Of a stretch of 46,223 bases of DNA, positions 1,511 to 46,223 are shown piece after piece (the stretch's first letter is position 1; every line of letters starts with the position of its first letter). The stretch is taken from the IMG/VR virus record IMGVR_UViG_3300038312_000302, positions 1 to 46,223 of that record. One strand, written 5' to 3'. The notes beneath the pieces were generated by a model. It made no database searches and was not told the DNA's origin. It saw nothing but the letters and a program-made list of their open reading frames with translations. The stretch comes from a virus (Duplodnaviria > Caudoviricetes). The position numbers and the translations under genes are program-made.

Positions 1511-2065
1511 TTACTCTGGACTAATCTCTGTTTTAAAGTCTAATCCCAACTGTCTATTATTGTTTTCCCAGTCTTCATATGTTAAACTTCTAGCCTCGGC
1601 AAGTTTCTTTTGAGCTTCCGTTAGTCTAGACTTAGCAGATGAAAACTCAGTCTTTACCATTTCTACATATTCCAGCTGTTGATCGAGTAGTGATTGTTTT
1701 TCACTCAAAAACTCTGCTTGTGACGAAAAATGTTTATACAATGCACGATAACACTCGATGCGATATTTACTCACCGCTTCACGAGCCTCTTCTTTCACGT
1801 TTTTTGGATTGATGGTAAAAAGCCATCCGAATACAAATTCAAGAGGCAAACATACCATTTCGTACTGTTTTCCATCGCTTCCAGTTGCCGTGCTGAGCAC
1901 GGTAACTGAATTCAAAAAAACGTCCTCTAGAAGCTTCCTTCTTTGAGCATCTTCATCAATTCCCAGAGCTAAACAAATTGGTTTAATTGGCACCAATTTT
2001 TCTTTGTTGTCTAATACTAATTGAATACTCACTTGATTAACTTTTGCTACTGTTTTTGTTTCCAT
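1511..2065 (-). CDS. Phage antirepressor (P22 Ant N-terminal-like domain) with coiled-coil C-terminus
   Basis: VPIKPICLALGID..QRRKL, GSDGKQYEMVCLPL..GWLFTINPKNVK..Y..ECY.AL pattern typical of P22AR N-terminal domains; ATG at 2065 preferred to TTG at 2071. Confidence 0.85.
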   Translation of the reverse strand: METKTVAKVNQVSIQLVLDNKEKLVPIKPICLALGIDEDAQRRKLLEDVFLNSVTVLSTATGSDGKQYEMVCLPLEFVFGWLFTINPKNVKEEAREAVSKYRIECYRALYKHFSSQAEFLSEKQSLLDQQLEYVEMVKTEFSSAKSRLTEAQKKLAEARSLTYEDWENNNRQLGLDFKTEISPE

Positions 2066-2095
2066 ATACAAATAATTTAAAGGATTAATATTTTA

Positions 2096-2251: not shown

Positions 2252-2476
2252 TTACGGCCACAGTTTAATAACTTTTTTACCGGTGTCTAGAGCTCTTGGT
2301 TCTGGGTTTTTGAGAGACTGGATAGCTTTGTTCAGGATATCTATTGTTTTTAATGAAGACTCGTATGTTCTGAGTAAAGTATCTATTGAACTATGCATTG
2401 AGTTATATTTCTCTACAGATATAGTAATAGTACCAGTGCTTTGGCAAACAGGTTCGGTTAGTTTTATTGCGTTCAT
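2252..2476 (-). CDS. Hypothetical protein (74 aa), antirepressor operon
   Basis: Start MNAIKL overlaps the upstream stop as ATGA (2473-2476), i.e. translational coupling. Confidence 0.7.
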   Translation of the reverse strand: MNAIKLTEPVCQSTGTITISVEKYNSMHSSIDTLLRTYESSLKTIDILNKAIQSLKNPEPRALDTGKKVIKLWP

Positions 2477-2700
2477 AATAGACCTCCTTTCATTGCAGCA
2501 CCGTTTAACTCCTGAACATGAAATGTGGCGCATACGCCATTGCCTATGAGCACAAGTACCATTTCATTACCCATATAGTGCTTTTCGCACTGTACAGGTT
2601 GCCCTTCAAAAAGGGTGTCTATAGCACGGCTGAGTGTGTCTTTTACTACTGTTGTGGGATTTGTTGCTCTCTGTGGAGCAGGTAGAGATTTTGTTTTCAT
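2473..2700 (-). CDS. Hypothetical protein (75 aa), first gene behind RNA element 1
   Basis: ATG preceded by an A-rich leader; ends KGGLL with AAAGGAGG coupling to the next gene. Confidence 0.7.
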   Translation of the reverse strand: MKTKSLPAPQRATNPTTVVKDTLSRAIDTLFEGQPVQCEKHYMGNEMVLVLIGNGVCATFHVQELNGAAMKGGLL

Positions 2701-2747
2701 TTTTGTAAAGCTTTTAAAATGATTATAAATGTGCAGAAATAAAAAGA

Positions 2748-2821
2748 GGGTTCTGCTTTCCCGTTGCTTTACACCTCAAAGGCAGCGAAGGCATTAACCT
2801 TTCGCACGGGGGTCAGAACCC
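2748..2821 (-). ncRNA. Structured RNA element 1 (putative C4/CI-like antisense RNA)
   Basis: Outer stem GGGTTCTG/CAGAACCC, CCCGT/ACGGG, inner GCGAA/TTCGC around GGCATTAAC; homologous to 23839-23911 with compensatory changes. Confidence 0.7.
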
Positions 2822-2903
2822 AAATATTATATTTTATAGAGTCGGCAAAAAAAATGCCCGCATGTTGGCGAGCTTATCCCGCCTTTGAGTATGTAAAGCA
2901 TCA

Positions 2904-2934
2904 CAAAGGTGGATAATATATTTTAAACAGCAAA
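2904..2934 (-). promoter_or_regulatory. Bacteroidetes sigma-A-like promoter for element 1
   Basis: TTTG-N19-CACCTTTG on the minus strand (consensus TTTG-N19-21-TAnnTTTG, one mismatch). Confidence 0.55.
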
Positions 2935-9188: not shown

Positions 9189-9320
9189 TTAATATAACCT
9201 ATCATACAACTTTATAATTATACTTTCATCTGATTTCTCTACAATAACCAGGTACTTTTGAGACAGATGGCGTATTAAATCTGTGTTGAGGTCGCTTGTT
9301 TTTAGCTTTATACAGCTCAT
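9189..9320 (-). CDS. Unannotated 43-aa ORF coupled to the DGR RT
   Basis: MSCIKLKTSDLNTDLIRHLSQKYLVIVEKSDESIIIKLYDRLY; its ATG overlaps the RT stop as ATGA (9317-9320). Confidence 0.55.
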   Translation of the reverse strand: MSCIKLKTSDLNTDLIRHLSQKYLVIVEKSDESIIIKLYDRLY

Positions 9321-10453
9321 TTATATTCATTTTTTAAGGCAAGGATTTCGTAGCGACCTTTAATGTAAACGTATTTAAACATATCTGCATTTATCATAGA
9401 TAGTATATTTTTCCTATTATTATACTCATTATACTGGCGAAGTAAGCCAAGGTATGAGTTTATGGTTGACACAGATTTTTTGATTTCATTGACATTTGAG
9501 GCTCTGTTTAATTTTTTAACCGCTTGTTTGAAGTTATTTATTGTTCTGCCTCCACAATACATTCTATATGTTTTAGCGATTGCTCCGGTAAACTGTACGC
9601 CTTTTGTGTAATGTTGTAAATAAAACTTATTCTCATTTATTGCTAACCCATATTTGGCAAGATGCTCTCTGATTGGCTGAATTACTGATAGTAGTTTTTC
9701 TTTGTTCTGATGGATTAGATAGATATCATCGACATAGCGTCCGTGATGCATAATACCAAGATCGTTTAAATACCAGTCGAGATCATTTAACAAGAAATTA
9801 GCGAAATGCTGTGCATATATATTGCCAATAGCAAGACCCAAGCCATCGCCATTAGTAAATAGAGATTTATTTTTCGGTAGATGATTCCATGATTCTGAAG
9901 GACTACGCATTTCGCAATCATTTTCCGGCTTGTGAAGAGTTATAACTTCACAGACATAGCGAAGATCTTCTATATCGCTACCCTTGTAATTTTGTACGAT
10001 AAAGTTGTCAACCATTTCATGCATCATCTGCTTATTTATGCTCATGAAGAAGCCTTTAAGGTCGAGTTTCATAATATAGCAATCTTTCGTATAGCCTTCG
10101 CTGCATTCAATTATGTCATTGTACAGCATATCAACGCCGTATAGTACGCCTTTATTTTTGCGGCAGCTGAAGGATCTTTCTGATAATACTTCTTCGAACA
10201 AAGGCTCGAGGCGAAGAACAGCATAATGATGAACTATCCTATCTTCAAATGAAGCTGCAAATACCTCTCTGTGCCTTGGACGTGTAACAACAAAACAAAT
10301 TGAAGTTGAGGGTTTGTAAACCCTTCTGTTGATCCTGCCAAGAAGGTTTATCAGGCTTGCTTCGTAGTTGACTTCATAGTCCAGTGCGCTCGCTGTTCTT
10401 CTTTTGCCCGAACGGCAGTTAAAATACGCTTGAAATATATCCTCTATTTTCAT
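9317..10453 (-). CDS. DGR reverse transcriptase
   Basis: REVFAASFEDRIVHH, KLDLKGFFMSI, GLAIGNIYAQHFAN and RYVDD motifs; next to TR and avd; start MKIEDIF (the longer ORF-track start lies inside TR). Confidence 0.96.
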   Translation of the reverse strand: MKIEDIFQAYFNCRSGKRRTASALDYEVNYEASLINLLGRINRRVYKPSTSICFVVTRPRHREVFAASFEDRIVHHYAVLRLEPLFEEVLSERSFSCRKNKGVLYGVDMLYNDIIECSEGYTKDCYIMKLDLKGFFMSINKQMMHEMVDNFIVQNYKGSDIEDLRYVCEVITLHKPENDCEMRSPSESWNHLPKNKSLFTNGDGLGLAIGNIYAQHFANFLLNDLDWYLNDLGIMHHGRYVDDIYLIHQNKEKLLSVIQPIREHLAKYGLAINENKFYLQHYTKGVQFTGAIAKTYRMYCGGRTINNFKQAVKKLNRASNVNEIKKSVSTINSYLGLLRQYNEYNNRKNILSMINADMFKYVYIKGRYEILALKNEYK

Positions 10454-10468
10454 AAATGTTAGTAACAG

Positions 10469-10576
10469 ATGCTGAGACCGGACGCACATTGATGCGATTC
10501 GTCGCCTTATTGTTCGCGTTCATGTTGCCGCTATTCAGGTTCAAGTTCCACGCGTTCGTCGCCGAATTCTCCTTTG
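10469..10576 (-). ncRNA. DGR template repeat (TR)
   Basis: 108-bp ungapped match to 11092-11199; 15 mismatches, all at TR adenines on the minus strand; 11 AAY codons in the target frame. Confidence 0.96.
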
Positions 10577-10646
10577 CCATATTGATTTTCTTAACCTTAA
10601 ATGAAGGTATATAGCCCATTTATTAAATTAACATTAGCCCTCTCGG

Positions 10647-11030
10647 TTAGCCGTGACCTTCCGATTCTCGCTTTATTGCTGAAATAAGTGAATTCTTCCA
10701 AGCCGTTGACTGCCTGCCTATAGATGTAGTTAACGCTGATATTGACGCAAACTTTTTAATGCTTATCCATTTACGCTCTGACGCAATACGAATGAGCGTT
10801 TTGAGCGTTTCAAACTTGGTTTGAAAACTAGTGAGATAATCAATCCTTGTTTTCAGGGACTTATTAATGTAAGCCCCTGAAATATCATTGAGAGCTTCAA
10901 CTGAATACTCCTGCATTTTTGTTCCTATCGTAAACTTATAAGCTTTAGGAAAATCCACAGTGATGTTCAGTATCTCATCGAGAAGAGATCTACAATCTAT
11001 ATATATTTTCGTATTGCTTGATAACCCCAT
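10647..11030 (-). CDS. avd: DGR accessory variability determinant (Avd-like four-helix bundle)
   Basis: 127 aa, basic and helical, FPKAYKFTIG...IGRQSTAW pattern; located between target gene and TR. Confidence 0.88.
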   Translation of the reverse strand: MGLSSNTKIYIDCRSLLDEILNITVDFPKAYKFTIGTKMQEYSVEALNDISGAYINKSLKTRIDYLTSFQTKFETLKTLIRIASERKWISIKKFASISALTTSIGRQSTAWKNSLISAIKRESEGHG

Positions 11031-11041
11031 TTTTGATTGAA

Positions 11042-11063
11042 GCCCTGCGTTTAAACGCAGGGC
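11042..11063. promoter_or_regulatory. Hairpin/cruciform downstream of VR (DGR homing element and/or terminator)
   Basis: Perfect 22-bp palindrome GCCCTGCGTTTAAACGCAGGGC, 17 nt after the target stop codon. Confidence 0.8.
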
Positions 11064-11080
11064 AAAATAACTGTTAACAA

Positions 11081-11779
11081 TTAACCGATAAATGCTGAGA
11101 CCGGACGCACATTGATGCGATACGCCGCCTTACCGTGCGCGCCCATGGCGCCGCTATACAGGTTCAAGTACCACGCGGTCGTCGCCGAACCCTCCGTTGA
11201 TGACCAGTAAGCGCCTTCCAAAAGCGGATTACTGCCGTTAATTAGAGTTAATGCATGATTTATTTTGTGCAGATTTGCGTATATCATCATAAGCTCGCCC
11301 ATTGATGGTAGCCACCATTTGCCGGCTGTGAGGCCAGCGTTATTGGAATTAGGCCGGCTATATAAATTACAATATCCAGGGGCATACTCAACAGTATTCG
11401 TAATAGCCGCCTCTGTTGACGCAGCTACTTGAGATGCTGTGTTAGCCTTCCCTGTCCAATCGTTCAAAGCTAACACCCTGTCTGATGATGTGAAGCCACC
11501 GCCAGCGATTGCGGCACTACTCCAATATAGGGCTGCTGGTTGCGTTATGGATACGACAATATGTCGACCACCCTCAAAAACGCCAACCCCCGATGCTATT
11601 TCACCAGAATTTTGCAAAGCAGTCCATTTATGGAGCTTGCACATTAATGGATAATTATCAGACTTTCTGTGATAAACAATAAATATATTGTCAGTTACAG
11701 TGTTCAGATTTAAGTCTCCAAGAATTTCGGTTTCAATATCCGGTATAACGTTAGATAATTTAACTTTCTTCATTTGCAT
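11081..11779 (-). CDS. DGR target protein with C-terminal C-type-lectin-fold variable domain (probable receptor-binding adhesin)
   Basis: WWLPSMGEL...YWSSTE...AW...VRPVSAF pattern; VR at the 3' end; last gene of the tail-tip cluster. Confidence 0.9.
   Translation of the reverse strand: MQMKKVKLSNVIPDIETEILGDLNLNTVTDNIFIVYHRKSDNYPLMCKLHKWTALQNSGEIASGVGVFEGGRHIVVSITQPAALYWSSAAIAGGGFTSSDRVLALNDWTGKANTASQVAASTEAAITNTVEYAPGYCNLYSRPNSNNAGLTAGKWWLPSMGELMMIYANLHKINHALTLINGSNPLLEGAYWSSTEGSATTAWYLNLYSGAMGAHGKAAYRINVRPVSAFIG
11092..11199 (-). repeat. DGR variable repeat (VR)
   Basis: Encodes TEGSATTAWYLNLYSGAMGAHGKAAYRINVRPVSA; TR in the same frame reads KENSATNAWNLNLNSGNMNANNKATNRINVRPVSA. Confidence 0.96.
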
Positions 11780-23659: not shown

Positions 23660-23794
23660 TCATGTTTCGGGTAGCAGAAGCGTTATCAACTCTCTTAATC
23701 GATCATAAGACTCAAGACGTTCTTTCTCATTCTTGCTTTTGAGAAGAGTGTCTAACCAGCCTAATGCTTTTGTTACTGTGATTGATTTACTCAT
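23660..23794 (-). CDS. Unannotated 44-aa peptide (48 aa from ATG 23806), paralog of 2096-2239
   Basis: MSKSITVTKALGWLDTLLKSKNEKERLESYDRLRELITLLLPET; only ORF between RNA element 2 and a terminator. Confidence 0.75.
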   Translation of the reverse strand: MSKSITVTKALGWLDTLLKSKNEKERLESYDRLRELITLLLPET

Positions 23795-23838
23795 TCTGTA
23801 ATGCATTTGAAATGAATATATAGGCAGGAAATAAATAA

Positions 23839-23911
23839 GGTCCTACCTCCCCGTTGCATTACACCTATCATAGGCAGTGGAGGCATTAACACACCACACG
23901 GGAGTAGGACC
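23839..23911 (-). ncRNA. Structured RNA element 2 (putative C4/CI-like antisense RNA)
   Basis: Outer stem GGTCCTAC/GTAGGACC, CCCGT/ACGGG, inner GTGG/CCAC around GGCATTAAC; homologous to 2748-2821. Confidence 0.7.
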
Positions 23912-23982
23912 AGTCTATTAAATGAGCTTAACGCTCTCCTTAATTACGGATCACTCGCCTATGAATAAGATGTAATGCACTG

Positions 23983-24013
23983 CAAAGATCGTAAATGTTT
24001 CGACAGACACAAA
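23983..24013 (-). promoter_or_regulatory. Sigma-A-like promoter for element 2
   Basis: TTTG-N19-GATCTTTG, same geometry as the element 1 promoter. Confidence 0.55.
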
Positions 24014-25693: not shown

Positions 25694-26086
25694 ATGAAAA
25701 ATATCATCGTAATTAATGAAGTGGACTGTTACTTAGGTAACGCATGGAAAACAAAGTATGCTACTCACAGTGCTGTTCAACATCAAATTTTAGTTAATAA
25801 CAACCCTCTAGGTCGAAGAAACAAGGTGTCTGACGATGACAGAGGCGAGCGAATTGCATTTACAAGAGAAGTTCCACAAGAGTTTGTAGATTTTTTCCAA
25901 CAAGCTGAAGTGCTATGTTGGAAAATGAAATCTGAGCACTGCAAATCTATTGAAGAGTATAACGCAGCGGCTGAATTCAACAAGCCTATTAAAGAAAACT
26001 TAGACTTGGTTATTAGTGAAATGTACGCAATTGAAGATTTGGGCTTAAGCTACAACGAGTTTAAGGGAATATTGCTTTACATATGA
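25694..26086 (+). CDS. Hypothetical protein
   Basis: 130 aa; ATGA-coupled to the next gene. Confidence 0.7.
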   Translation: MKNIIVINEVDCYLGNAWKTKYATHSAVQHQILVNNNPLGRRNKVSDDDRGERIAFTREVPQEFVDFFQQAEVLCWKMKSEHCKSIEEYNAAAEFNKPIKENLDLVISEMYAIEDLGLSYNEFKGILLYI

Positions 26087-26406
26087 AAGTAAAATGTTAC
26101 TCTGTTCGCCTTGAAGCCCTGGTCGGTATATCTGACAGGGCTTACAAGGCTGTAGGGTTTGATGGATCGACGGCCATCATCCCAAAGTCGCAAGTTTTCG
26201 GGCAAGATTACGATGTGATGAAGAGTGAGGCTTTCTGGATATCGGAGTGGATTTTGGAAAAAAAATCAATCCAGTACAGCACAAAGAAAGTAGCTTGGTT
26301 TGACAGGGATTCAAAGAAAATGATACCGACATTTATAACTAAAAAGCATGTACCGGACAAAGTTGTCCCTGTTGAAAACAACGAAATTAAAGAGTTAAAA
26401 AAATAA
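26083..26406 (+). CDS. Hypothetical protein
   Basis: 107 aa, small beta-rich protein in the operon. Confidence 0.75.
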   Translation: MKVKCYSVRLEALVGISDRAYKAVGFDGSTAIIPKSQVFGQDYDVMKSEAFWISEWILEKKSIQYSTKKVAWFDRDSKKMIPTFITKKHVPDKVVPVENNEIKELKK

Positions 26407-26418
26407 AATATTTAAAAT

Positions 26419-26688
26419 ATGAAAATAGCTATTAAACACAGTACTAAAGGGTTTTTGCTATACAATAAGGATTACCCTGGTGAATTATGGACGGTTGACC
26501 ATAGTAACAGATGGATTAGAATTTTCAGTAATGTTGAGCAGGCAGAACAGTGTGCAAAAACATTGAGAAACTTAGACGGTGAGCTATTGAAAAAGGTTGA
26601 TATTATTGAAATGCTCCCAACATCTGAACCATTTCACTTTGAATCATACAATGTTGTAAAAACAATAATAAATGAAGTTGAAGAATGA
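26419..26688 (+). CDS. Hypothetical protein
   Basis: 89 aa; overlaps the helicase start. Confidence 0.65.
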   Translation: MKIAIKHSTKGFLLYNKDYPGELWTVDHSNRWIRIFSNVEQAEQCAKTLRNLDGELLKKVDIIEMLPTSEPFHFESYNVVKTIINEVEE

Positions 26689-27886
26689 TCAGAAAGCAGC
26701 CAAATCCCATCTGTCCGACTGGCGGGTGGGAGCGTTGTTTATGGAAGCAGGTACCGGTAAAACAAGAGTAGCTGTTGAGATTGCAAATGAAACAACTGCT
26801 GATCTGGTTGTATGGATTGGGCCACTGAGAACGATCAAGCCTAAGGAAGGCATTTCATCCATCATTGATGAAATAAACAGGTGGGGTGGCTTTAAGGCTC
26901 CAGTGATTTTCTTCGGAGTTGAATCTATCTCGCAATCTGACAGAATATTCCTTGAATTGAGAAATACAATAGAGAAAGCCAATAATCCGTTTATCATAGT
27001 GGATGAAAGCCTTAAGATTAAGAACAGCCAGGCAAAACGTACAAAAAGACTTATGGAGTTGAGCCATTTAGCTAAATATAAATTAATTCTAAATGGAACA
27101 CCTATAAGCAAAAATCTTATGGACTTGAAGCCTCAAATGGATTTTTTATCACATAAAATACTCTCGATGAGTGATGCGGAGTATAAGAGCACATTCTGCG
27201 AATATACAAAAGTCACAAAGTATTTTGGCGGTAGAAGAGGCTATACAAAGGAGTTTATAACCGGATATGAAAATATTGATTACCTGTATTCGCTTATAAG
27301 ACATTACGTGTATGAATGTGATCTAAAGCTGAATGTGAGCCAGCAATACAGTGTGTTAAATTATGAGCTGTCGGAGAAAGACAGAGAGGATTACAACTTT
27401 TTGAAAACTAAATATCTTGATAATGAGATGCTGATGTGGAAAAATAATAATATTTTTCTCGAAATGACTCAAAAAATGCAACACGCATATTGTTGTAGTG
27501 AAAGTAAGTTTGAGGCAGTTCAAGATTTGTTTGAAAAAACAGATCCTGAGAAAACGATAATTTACTGCAAGTATATAAATAGCCGGAAAGAATGTGAGAA
27601 AAGATTTCCTAAAGCGACTGTTTTAAGTTATCAAAAAGAATCGTTTGGACTGAATTTACAGCATTTATCTAACACTATATATTTTGATAAGAACTGGGAT
27701 TATGCTTTGAGGATCCATTCGACCAGGAGAACATTCAGGACCGGGCAGGAGTATGATTGTCATTATTGGGATTTGACCGGTGATGTAGGTTTAGAAATAA
27801 TGATAGACAACAACATCGAAAAGAAGATAGATATGGCGGAGTATTTTAAAGGAAAAACTAAAGAAGAATTACGTGAAGTATTATAA
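26672..27886 (+). CDS. Compact SNF2-like superfamily-2 helicase/ATPase
   Basis: Walker A FMEAGTGKT, motif II IIVDESLKIKN, motif III LNGTP, FGLNLQ, motif VI-like RRTFRTGQ. Confidence 0.85.
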   Translation: MKLKNDQKAAKSHLSDWRVGALFMEAGTGKTRVAVEIANETTADLVVWIGPLRTIKPKEGISSIIDEINRWGGFKAPVIFFGVESISQSDRIFLELRNTIEKANNPFIIVDESLKIKNSQAKRTKRLMELSHLAKYKLILNGTPISKNLMDLKPQMDFLSHKILSMSDAEYKSTFCEYTKVTKYFGGRRGYTKEFITGYENIDYLYSLIRHYVYECDLKLNVSQQYSVLNYELSEKDREDYNFLKTKYLDNEMLMWKNNNIFLEMTQKMQHAYCCSESKFEAVQDLFEKTDPEKTIIYCKYINSRKECEKRFPKATVLSYQKESFGLNLQHLSNTIYFDKNWDYALRIHSTRRTFRTGQEYDCHYWDLTGDVGLEIMIDNNIEKKIDMAEYFKGKTKEELREVL

Positions 27887-29084
27887 TAAAAATAAAAACG
27901 TTTACGAAGCAGCAGTTGAGCGATTTGAGATCATATTCAAAGAGTTTGATCGTGTTTGTATTTCGTTCTCAAATGGGAAAGACAGCGGAGTGCTACTAAA
28001 CTTAGCTATTGAAGTAGCCAAGAAGCTGAATAAGCTGCCTGTACATGCAATGTACATTGATATGGAAGCTCAGTATCAGCATTCTATTGATTATACAGTT
28101 AAAATGTTTGACAGGTCTGAGGTAAAGGCTTATTGGATATGCTTACCTATTCATCTGAGAAATGCAGTATCTCAATTTCAAAATCATTGGTTATGTTGGG
28201 ATCCTGATAAAAAAGATGCATGGGTGAGAGATCTGCCGAAGCATCAATCTGTAATATCAGATGAAAGCTACTTCTCTTTTTTTAGACGTGGAATGGAGTT
28301 TGAAGAGTTTACTCCAGAGTTTGCTAAATGGTTTTCACAGGGTGAGAAAACAGCATCTGTGATAGGAATACGAAGCGATGAAAGTTTGAACCGTTATAGA
28401 ACGATAAAGAGTGATAGCAAAATAACCTACAATAATTATCAGTGGACTACGAAGCTTTTTAGAGAAGATCCGGAGCAAGAAATATATAATGCTTATCCTA
28501 TTTATGATTGGCATGTGGAAGATATTTGGACGGCAAATGCTAAATTTGATTGGGAATATAACAAGATTTACGATCTTATGTACATGGCTGGTGTATCATT
28601 GCATAAGCAACGCCTGTGTCAGCCATACGGTGATGACCAGAGGCAAGGCTTGTATTTATTTAAAGCCTTGGAACCTGAAACTTGGGCAAAGATTGTGAAC
28701 AGAGTTGAAGGTGCTAATTTCGGCAACCGTTATACTGAAACTGATAAAACGACCTTGGGTAACTACAAGGTTAATTTACCTCCGGGGCATACATATGAAT
28801 CTTATGCAAAGTTTCTTTTAGACACTATGCCTCCATATTTAGCTGAACACTATCAAACTAAAATAGACACTTTTTTAAAATGGTGGGAGAAAGAGGAAAT
28901 TAAAATAATTCCTGATACAGCAGATCCGAAAATGGAAGCTGCTAGAAAAGCACCTAGCTGGAGACGTATATGTAAAGTATTACTTAAAAATGATTATTGG
29001 TGTAAAGGTTTATCTTTCTCACAAACTAAGCGAGAACTCGAAAAGCAAATGGAAATAATAACAAAATACTCAGATATATTATGA
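27873..29084 (+). CDS. ibrA: IbrA-like PAPS-reductase-family (PP-loop) protein with DUF3440-like C-terminus
   Basis: SFSNGKDS PP-loop, IGIRSDESLNR, YPIYDW..EDIW, QRLCQPYG, SWRRICK.LLKNDYWC. Confidence 0.88.
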   Translation: MKYYNKNKNVYEAAVERFEIIFKEFDRVCISFSNGKDSGVLLNLAIEVAKKLNKLPVHAMYIDMEAQYQHSIDYTVKMFDRSEVKAYWICLPIHLRNAVSQFQNHWLCWDPDKKDAWVRDLPKHQSVISDESYFSFFRRGMEFEEFTPEFAKWFSQGEKTASVIGIRSDESLNRYRTIKSDSKITYNNYQWTTKLFREDPEQEIYNAYPIYDWHVEDIWTANAKFDWEYNKIYDLMYMAGVSLHKQRLCQPYGDDQRQGLYLFKALEPETWAKIVNRVEGANFGNRYTETDKTTLGNYKVNLPPGHTYESYAKFLLDTMPPYLAEHYQTKIDTFLKWWEKEEIKIIPDTADPKMEAARKAPSWRRICKVLLKNDYWCKGLSFSQTKRELEKQMEIITKYSDIL

Positions 29085-29674
29085 AGATAGATTTACCAGA
29101 AAATATAACTATAGATGAAAAGGTTTCATTATTTAATGATTTAACACAGCAACTGTATGATTGGATTGGATTAAAACATCCATCTCTTAATGTGCAGTTA
29201 ATTAAGGCAGAACAAATTCAGGGCAACGATTATAACCCTAATAAGGTTGCGCCACCCGAAATGAAATTATTGAAGCTATCAATAAAAAAAGATGGAGTGA
29301 CTATGCCAGTTGTAGTTGCGAATCAAGACAAAAAGAGGATGCCGTATGTTGTTGTTGATGGTTTTCATAGAACAACAGTAATTAGCCAGGATAAAGAGAT
29401 TAATGAAAGCCTTGCCGGCTATGTGCCTACATCTAGGCTAAACAAATCAATTGAAGATAGAATAACGGCTACTGTGAGGCATAACATGGCCAGAGGCACA
29501 CATCAGGTTGAATTATCGGCAAAGTTGGTTGCAATGCTTAAGAAGCATAATTGGACAAACGCTCGCATTGGAATGGAGCTTGGAATGGATGCGGACGAAG
29601 TATTGAGACTCAAACAAATAACAGGATTAGCAGAATTATTTAAAGACAAAGAATTTAGTAACTCATGGAAATGA
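29081..29674 (+). CDS. ibrB: IbrB-like ParB/Srx-domain protein
   Basis: NDYNPNKVAPPEMKLLKLSI..DG.TMP, VVDGFHR, ATVRHNMARG.H, LGMDADEVLRLKQITGL. Confidence 0.9.
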   Translation: MKIDLPENITIDEKVSLFNDLTQQLYDWIGLKHPSLNVQLIKAEQIQGNDYNPNKVAPPEMKLLKLSIKKDGVTMPVVVANQDKKRMPYVVVDGFHRTTVISQDKEINESLAGYVPTSRLNKSIEDRITATVRHNMARGTHQVELSAKLVAMLKKHNWTNARIGMELGMDADEVLRLKQITGLAELFKDKEFSNSWK

Positions 29675-29967
29675 AAGAGAATAATTATGAATGGCAATTA
29701 ATGGTATTGACCTTGAAAGAAATTGCATCGGATAAGAAGATTACGCATGAAATGATTGCAGAGCGTGCAGGAATGGCGAGAGATAATGTGACAAGGTTTT
29801 TTTCGGCCAAACATAAGCCTAACCTTGATATGTTTTTGACTATTGCTAAGGCTATTGGGGTTTACTTTTATTTTGAAGATAAAGACGGCACTTCAGACTT
29901 GACACGGAGTTTTGACAGGGCTATGACAGAACTAGGTCGTAGAGGTGAAATAATGAGCAGAAATTAA
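29671..29967 (+). CDS. Xre/Cro-C1 HTH regulator
   Basis: ITHEMIAERAGMARDNVTRFFS...PNLDMFLTIAKAIG; ATGA-coupled to ibrB. Confidence 0.85.
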   Translation: MKENNYEWQLMVLTLKEIASDKKITHEMIAERAGMARDNVTRFFSAKHKPNLDMFLTIAKAIGVYFYFEDKDGTSDLTRSFDRAMTELGRRGEIMSRN

Positions 29968-45399: not shown

Positions 45400-45840
45400 A
45401 TGGACTATAATACTCTATTATCCAAGCGTTTAAAAATTATTCTTAATGAACAATTTGGAGGAAATTATTCTGCTATGAGCAGATTAATGGGAGTTACAGA
45501 TGGCGCGTTAGGTAGCTATATAAGAGGAAAGAAGCAAAAAGATGGTAGTATTAGAATATCAACACCTTCGGCAGAAGTTATTGCAAATATTATCAATAAT
45601 CTGGGAATAAATTCCGAATGGCTATTGTTTGGGACGGGTGATATGAAGGTTAAACAAACTACAAATGTGGTAAGCGAGCCTGAACAGGAATATATTTTAT
45701 CTGAAAATAGATTGCTTGCGATAATAGAATCACAACAGAGAGTTATTGAATCGCAAAGTAAAAGTATAGAGAATTTGTCGGATGGGGGCAACGGTACTGC
45801 GGAAGGTGCAAACACTGCGCGTGTAAGAAAGGGAAGTTGA
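45400..45840 (+). CDS. CI-like HTH repressor lacking an S24 peptidase domain
   Basis: YSAMSRLMGVTDGALGSYIRG HTH, INSEWLLFGTGDM, C-terminal coiled coil. Confidence 0.8.
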   Translation: MDYNTLLSKRLKIILNEQFGGNYSAMSRLMGVTDGALGSYIRGKKQKDGSIRISTPSAEVIANIINNLGINSEWLLFGTGDMKVKQTTNVVSEPEQEYILSENRLLAIIESQQRVIESQSKSIENLSDGGNGTAEGANTARVRKGS

Positions 45841-46038
45841 TACCACTAACACCCAATTTATCAGAGGGTTGTTAGTGTTTTTTTTAGGCGTTCACCGGGA
45901 CGGCCCCCGGGACAAACTTCGTTAATTTAGAAAATAAAGTATTTCGGGCAGTGTGATAATTGTGTTTGCAAAATTAATAATGTGATATGATTAATTCCTG
46001 TGAAAGAGTGATATATCTTATTTTTATTGCCGATATGC

Positions 46039-46057
46039 CGGCACAGTATCGGCACAG
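46039..46057 (+). promoter_or_regulatory. Putative integrase arm-type sites (right)
   Basis: CGGCACAG at 46039-46046 and 46050-46057. Confidence 0.75.
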
Positions 46058-46138
46058 AACAGGTGATATTTCGAAGATTTTGATTTTTTAATGTATTGAT
46101 AATAAGTAGTGTAGTAAAATAAAAGGGGAGGGAGATAG

Positions 46139-46153
46139 TCCCTCTCTCTCCGC
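46139..46153 (+). repeat. attR core
   Basis: TCCCTCTCTCTCCGC, duplicate of the tRNA 3' end. Confidence 0.92.
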
Positions 46154-46223
46154 GAAAAATGTTTTGAAGTGCTCTGTGAAGAGCAAAAAAAGAAACAATA
46201 GCGAATAGATAAGTGTCGTAATT

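Follow-up and report, generated by a model that had tools for sequence, protein, structure and literature searches.

A variable-code structured RNA in antirepressor-operon leaders of Bacteroidota prophages: a probable C4/CI-type antisense attenuator

The leader of an antirepressor operon in a prophage contains a structured RNA gene, a member of a large RNA family that has no Rfam match and in which guide-target covariation is unusually clear. Judging from sequence comparison, structure modelling and the analogy with phages P1 and P4, this RNA probably functions as an antisense attenuator of the C4/CI type that acts in trans. The window, i.e. the whole stretch of 46,223 nucleotides analysed here (IMG/VR record IMGVR_UViG_3300038312_000302), contains two copies, designated element 1 and element 2.

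Two elements in one prophage

The window is a single Bacteroidota-type prophage carrying an integrase gene (204-1361), tail and tape-measure genes, a diversity-generating retroelement and a gene for a CI-like repressor (45400..45840, plus strand; phrog_8, E 2.1e-9; phrog_4, E 6.1e-6). The location of the homologues of the element points to the Bacteroidota as its host group. The left end (1-207) contains a tRNA fragment (1-75) beside the integrase gene and the right end (46032-46155) contains repeated segments and a tRNA 3'-like sequence; these two ends are likely attachment sites. The retroelement (9317-11779) comprises a reverse transcriptase, Avd, a target gene with an Lcl C-terminal domain and a pair of 108-nt repeats (10469-10576 and 11092-11199) that are 86% identical. 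A rightward operon (25694-29967, plus strand) with SNF2 helicase, PAPS-reductase/DUF3440, ParB-N and HTH genes is situated within leftward phage genes.

A HIRAN-domain gene lies on one side of element 1, and on the other is a leftward operon in which three small ORFs are followed by an antirepressor gene. On the minus strand, its order is promoter-like box, upstream target (a1), overlapping antiterminator and terminator hairpins, 74-nt RNA, U-tract, downstream target (a2), small ORFs and antirepressor gene. The promoter-like boxes (2904..2934), from which the start site was inferred, are TTTG at 2934-2931 and, after 19 nt, CACCTTTG at 2911-2904; the Bacteroides promoter consensus is TTTG-N19-21-TAnnTTTG. 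The spacing between the promoter box and a1 is constant at 3 nt in the homologues, and position 2 of the box is A in 140 of 141. The upstream target (2881..2900), complementary to the guide arm, would form the 5' end of the leader. An antiterminator hairpin (GGCGGG/CTCGCC, 2867..2883) starts in the final 3 bases of a1 and overlaps the 5' arm of an intrinsic terminator-like hairpin (GCTCGC/GCGGGC followed by T8, 2847..2873). The RNA itself (2748..2821) folds into a three-way junction, with an outer stem, an internal loop, a CCCGU/ACGGG stem, a hairpin with a UUAAUG loop, a GCC/GGU hairpin with a variable loop, and an 8-nt single-stranded junction. Its guide arm (2765..2783) includes a variable 5-nt code, TAAAG, at 2771-2767. 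Directly behind the outer stem is a U-rich tract (2738..2747), a possible second stop site and 3' end of the RNA, and a2 (2704..2711) lies 3 nt ahead of the start codon (ATG at 2700).

Every sequence and position on which the original prediction was based was found in place, including the complementarity of the arm to 2881-2900 (with one mismatch and one bulged base) and to 2704-2711, 3 nt from the ATG at 2700. The letters it had quoted are those of the plus strand, where they are indeed present; the RNA itself is encoded on the minus strand, as the base-pair counts given below indicate. It had included neither the terminator, nor the hairpin at the end of a1 that overlaps the 5' arm of the terminator, nor the antirepressor gene downstream. 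An identical copy of element 1 was found in a metagenome contig (L525).

Behind a2, on the same strand, the first ORF (75 aa, 2473..2700, starting with the ATG at 2700) has no Pfam or PHROG family, and a similar ORF follows one of the homologues (L002). The second and third small ORFs (74 aa, 2476-2252; 47 aa, 2239-2096) are also without family. The 47-aa ORF resembled the 44-aa ORF of element 2 by eye, and BLASTP gave no alignment between them. The operon ends in an antirepressor gene of the Ant family (1511..2071; P22_AR_N, E 3.8e-29; phrog_524 Ant, E 1.7e-34), whose plausible target is the CI-like repressor of the prophage.

Element 2 (23839..23911, minus strand; code TAATG) is the second copy that the original prediction had described, with the stem swaps that it had listed and with the arm and both targets differing in step. 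It scored 71.7 bits in the family model, the training set of which contained an identical sequence from a viral contig (L001). Its promoter-like box (23990-23983) and a1 (23979-23957) occupy 23957..23990, and its a2 (23805-23797) and a 44-aa ORF (23794-23660), the only downstream ORF noted, occupy 23660..23805. Leader analysis of the identical L001 sequence found no terminator or antiterminator behind a1, and element 2 is possibly a constitutive guide.

A patchy RNA family with a variable guide code

Since loose patterns produced mostly chance matches on viral contigs, a pattern of 19-20 bases was adopted that covered the scaffold and excluded the guide and its targets. In species genomes, this pattern had 92 matching stretches, nearly all of them from Bacteroidota among the 80 matches listed, and in viral sequences it had at least 121, where about 460 were estimated for the strict pattern alone. 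The 256 matches comprised 162 distinct cores; after 6 cores without the closing CGGG were left out, 156 homologues with 35 five-base codes were retained, and 87 of these were used to build a covariance model. The model detected members in 13 of 41 sampled Bacteroides genomes, with up to 9 matches, and no member among the 31 candidates scored per genome in 150 genomes drawn across the phylum. The family is patchily distributed, as expected for mobile DNA. Among annotated phage records there was one weak match, to an unannotated element of the isolated Bacteroides phage BS-TP3. The upstream target of this member (L471, 3998-4080) matches its guide, making the phage a possible test system.

The original prediction could not assign the RNA to a named Rfam family. 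An Rfam scan of the window matched the tRNA at 1-75 alone and nothing at the element, and no family of any name was matched at the element in 36 homologous loci (20 searched at the gathering threshold and 16 at E up to 10). One of the nearest known systems is the c4-2 motif (Weinberg 2017), which its paper takes for a likely distant homologue of an RNA already described (PMC5737381). The literature searched contained no description of the present family. Motifs of the family were sought in parts of the supplements of PMC10994844, PMC8040213 and PMC10690425 and not found there; because such candidate-RNA catalogues were covered only partly, the family may stand unnamed in one of them. The RNAs named in an extract of the Minerva preprint are TwoAYGGAY and UG27.

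The 74-nt core of element 1 folded more stably than its shuffles on both strands (z = -3.97 for the minus strand and -5.29 for the plus strand), and the core of element 2 alone folded weakly (z = -1.37). Folding energy did not decide the strand; the alignment did, with 194 G-U cells against 21 A-C cells when read as the minus strand. In the 87-row alignment, 93.2% of the cells were paired and 318 cells carried double changes, compared with 98.7 in shuffled alignments and at most 130 in slid controls. CCCGTG, GTTAATGC, CTGCC and CGGG are invariant by construction, being positions of the search pattern. Outside the pattern, covarying pairs were found at 8 of 8 positions of the outer stem and 5 of 7 of the first hairpin, and the GTG ahead of the code was present in 156 of 156 homologues. 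A U-tract was present behind the outer stem in 136 of 149 members; the same statistic taken 25-50 nt downstream gave 30-53 of 154. A segment 5-45 nt past the RNA can pair with the 3' strand of the outer stem in 87 of 149 members (17-27% in controls) and may lock the read-through fold.

The upstream target was located from the promoter box, with its TTTG part as anchor and without use of the guide, in 141 of the 156 members. The guide code was the exact 5-mer complement of a1 in 136 of these 141 (permuted mean 6.6, maximum 17), so that the changeable specificity code suggested for the two copies extends to the whole family, with its 35 codes. Of the five misses, one (L330) was due to a wrong anchor and was later left out, and the other four (L264, L284, L305 and L411) were real mismatches; the L411 target fits another code of the family, which suggests recombination there. 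Pairing between the hairpin-loop segment and the 3' part of a1 was found in 134 of 140 members (13 when permuted), and mutual information between guide and a1 amounted to 1.2-1.75 bits on the complementary diagonal at four of the five positions, the fifth being invariant. As many as 11 codes occur on one identical scaffold, and the guide matches its a1 in 42 of the 45 entries that make up such multi-code groups. Kinship alone is therefore insufficient to explain the match, which must have been re-established many times. Divergent members, i.e. model matches outside the seed pattern, showed the a1 match in 25 of 28 cases (permuted 2.6).

The downstream target is less general. A seed complement within 14 nt ahead of an ATG was present in 101 of 153 close members (permuted mean 6.2). 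A strict test for a2 gave a match in 1 of 27 divergent members, several rows of which had a mis-parsed code, and a 5-mer complement anywhere within the next 110 nt occurred in just 13 of 28. Thus a1 is near-universal; a2 occurs in roughly two thirds of close members and is often absent from divergent ones. Pairing predictions for 60 sampled guides ranked the cognate a1 best against other-code targets in 60 of 60. For the two window RNAs, the predicted energies were -10.7 and -15.7 kcal/mol for cognate pairs and -1.5 and -3.5 for crossed pairs, and the folded RNA of element 1 showed no predicted energy gain with a2. A third copy of the element 1 seed, ahead of the ORF at 26083, was considered as a target in trans and rejected: the site was not conserved in 11 relatives of the ORF, and an identical site occurs in a complete record (G195) whose sole model match is element 2.

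Several loci bear more than one cassette. A profile search of loci of at least 2 kb found two cassettes in 10 of 140, and 6 of the 8 distinct combinations differed in code. In the two-cassette loci with different codes (L145/L361, L292, L295, L371 and L409), each guide is matched by its own upstream target. One record (G003; L460, 911-1578) contains three tandem cassettes, spaced about 295 nt apart, that differ in code and each have a matching a1 of their own; a KilA-N/ANT gene follows. A further tandem triple (G175) has a single code, and two of its copies have lost the match.

A predicted leader switch and its alternatives

A terminator-like hairpin was found in 124 of 140 leaders, compared with 12 of 94 shuffles. 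The antiterminator had at least 5 of its 6 pairs in 127 of 133 leaders (64.8 expected), with varied paired sequences, and it overlapped the terminator in 116 of 118. When a1 was blocked in silico in 118 leaders, the median predicted terminator formation rose from 0.43 to 0.99; 66 leaders crossed 0.5 and 4 fell. For element 1 at equilibrium, the terminator was predicted in either state (0.88 with a1 free and 1.00 with a1 blocked), and co-transcriptional snapshots had the antiterminator forming first, at -9.8 kcal/mol compared with -9.7 for the terminator. Because the terminator of element 1 is favoured at equilibrium, its switch would be kinetic, with the antiterminator trapped during transcription. 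The RNA core was predicted to be disrupted by its own free a1 in 132 of 133 leaders, and with a1 blocked it was predicted to form in 124.

The mechanism that we propose from these predictions would operate as follows. When no matching RNA is present, as on a new infection, the end of a1 would form the antiterminator and the polymerase would read through; the nascent guide would then pair with its own a1, and the small ORFs and the antirepressor would be expressed. Some transcripts would yield the folded RNA of about 75 nt, by processing and/or by a stop at the U-tract. This RNA would bind a1 in trans through the 8-nt junction seed and the hairpin loop and thereby free the terminator, which would limit expression of the operon and synthesis of the RNA itself. 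Where a2 is present, the seed would also cover the translation start of the first ORF. Owing to the variable code, the switches of different phages would be mutually insensitive.

Downstream of the family, 235 distinct ORFs of at least 60 aa were collected from 103 loci with enough flank, and the 111 ORFs of at least 90 aa (76 loci) were scanned for domains. ANT, Bro-N, KilA-N, Rha or AntA domains were found in 22 ORFs from 20 of the 76 loci; no antirepressor domain was seen within 1.5 kb downstream in the other 56, and the remaining ORFs were mostly without family. In three Bacteroides genomes (L278, L283 and L288), the member precedes an ORF without family and a glutamine synthetase III gene. 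At the L283 locus, which is from B. thetaiotaomicron, RNA contigs cover the RNA and the ORF, and they end at 1422-1427 in 5 of 6 RNA-contig runs and 3 of 4 studies, i.e. 16-21 nt inside the predicted start (about 1406). The contig of one RNA run reaches 1352, upstream of the promoter, and a contig from a run of unrecorded type spans 1074-1509; the single raw-read run examined had no reads on the element. These ends hint weakly at a transcript boundary and are not evidence for a small RNA.

We consider it unlikely that the element is a purely conformational switch in cis, in which the guide would pair with a1 or a2 of its own transcript only and no free trans-acting RNA would be formed. Such a switch agrees with the predicted ground state of the whole leader, which is the cis pairing with a1, and with the modest enrichment of the hairpin that captures the 3' strand of the outer stem (87/149, against 27% with the tails of other members). 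However, the conserved antiterminator and terminator are passed before the guide is made and hence lie beyond the control of a cis guide, so that only an RNA acting in trans can control the terminator. Moreover, such a switch would leave the presence of 35 codes on a conserved scaffold unexplained.

Two further readings concern what the element controls and whether it acts as RNA at all. Silencing of a toxic first ORF as the main role, in the manner of a type I toxin-antitoxin system or of kil/icd, with the antirepressor link secondary, seems to us quite unlikely. This role would suit the many first ORFs that are short and belong to no family, the 44-aa ORF that alone follows element 2, and the SymE-family toxin gene immediately behind a Flavobacterium member (L271, 1603-1875); yet the first ORF encodes a Bro-N/ANT, Rha or AntA protein in several loci (e.g. 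L257, L306, L345, L351, L360 and L393), first ORFs are of many unrelated kinds, and the RNA mechanism would be unchanged in any case. Very improbable is a function of the repeats as DNA, whether as protein operators or as recombination or inversion sites, with the fold incidental. While a1 and the arm do form an inverted repeat in DNA and the four loci whose a1 code is unlike the guide suggest cassette recombination, G-U pairs favour one strand by 194 to 21 and the stems covary; in addition, a1 is interrupted precisely opposite the stem of the guide's hairpin, and U-tracts stand behind both hairpins. An antisense attenuator acting in trans is the reading that we prefer.

Relation to known RNAs and biological meaning

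The closest parallel is the C4 RNA of phages P1 and P7 (RF01695; c4-a1b1, RF03163). Both are RNAs of about 75 nt located inside the leader that they regulate, and both form a three-way junction in which the first hairpin is stacked, the second hairpin has a variable loop and the 3' junction is single-stranded. In both systems, the guide is divided between the hairpin loop and the 3' strand of the junction, and the upstream target, the RNA, the downstream target, a small ORF and the antirepressor gene succeed one another in the same order; the P1 record has the order a1, b1, c4, a2, b2, icd, ant. The C4/CI analogy drawn in the original prediction is thus strengthened by the family-wide guide-target match, by the operon ending in an antirepressor gene and by a layout and junction topology like those of P1. 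The consensus structures of C4 and of the new family agree in a GCC...GGU second hairpin with a closing G-U pair and in the final CAA of the junction, a lead to remote homology. In our folding, the P1 c4 leader (L459, 756-820) likewise forms two competing hairpins, one that overlaps b1 and one that is terminator-like and has a U-tract, neither of them annotated in the record.

The C4 model RF01695 gave no match in the window, in 20 homologues at the gathering threshold or in another 16 with E values up to 10 allowed (P1 control, 68.8 bits), and the c4-a1b1 model gave none in the upstream target region of the window and homologues (P1 control, 51 bits). Reciprocally, the family model had no significant match in the P1 region, and none of its matches spanned the whole c4 gene (844-920). 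A downstream target of the C4 type is present in both window copies and, as one short seed, in 101 of 153 close members, being often absent in divergent ones. A small ORF and antirepressor operon of the C4 type is present in the window and, within 1.5 kb, in 20 of 76 loci of the family. The family differs from C4 in having a conserved GUUAAUGC loop where C4 has a tetraloop, a closing stem that is broken by an internal loop, a U-tract directly behind the RNA, mostly one short downstream target instead of two, and a Bacteroidota promoter. As the C4 model test failed, the family is set apart from C4 as a variant, perhaps a remote homologue.

Mature C4 and P4 CI RNAs are cut from their leaders by RNase P, and P4 CI reportedly acts on an intrinsic terminator between the promoter and cI (Briani et al. 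2000). The likeness of the new family to P4 CI (seqA/seqC) and to IsrK/STnc1160 of Gifsy-1 was drawn from published descriptions. Unlike P4 CI, the new element has an operon that ends in an antirepressor gene, and its phage also has a CI-like protein repressor. An extract on P4 describes CI RNA as processed and as causing premature termination by pairing with the upstream seqA and the downstream seqC (PMC4825925). C4 underlies the heteroimmunity of P1 and P7 according to an extract of PMC12197685, and Table 1 of PMC2864571, from 2010, lists it for Proteobacteria and phages. The FopS sRNAs of Bacteroides thetaiotaomicron resemble the new family as a multicopy Bacteroides RNA family; in the excerpt of PMC11697453, they have a single-stranded 5' part and a terminator hairpin and act on polysaccharide-utilisation mRNAs. 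They differ in having no three-way junction, and the new RNA does not fit the FopS layout of a seed and one terminator hairpin.

This class of mechanism is not new: P1 C4 and P4 CI are its earlier examples. To our knowledge, lysis-lysogeny control in Bacteroidota prophages, which are abundant in the gut, is poorly described. A possible, still tentative, reading of the variable code is an arms race of RNA addresses among Bacteroidota phages and mobile elements. Dozens of orthogonal codes would then define antirepressor immunity groups, and tandem cassettes would widen silencing or let an incoming phage escape a single guide. Copies without a terminator, such as element 2, would be constitutive guides against other phages, a sequence-programmed defence free of protein. 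The tandem cassettes and the terminator-less element 2 are compatible with such a race. Since the code can be read directly from sequence, it should allow predictions of which phages are cross-immune. The family represents a specific and testable control point on the antirepressors of Bacteroidota prophages, and its members would make up a natural collection of orthogonal RNA attenuators on which Bacteroides engineering could draw.
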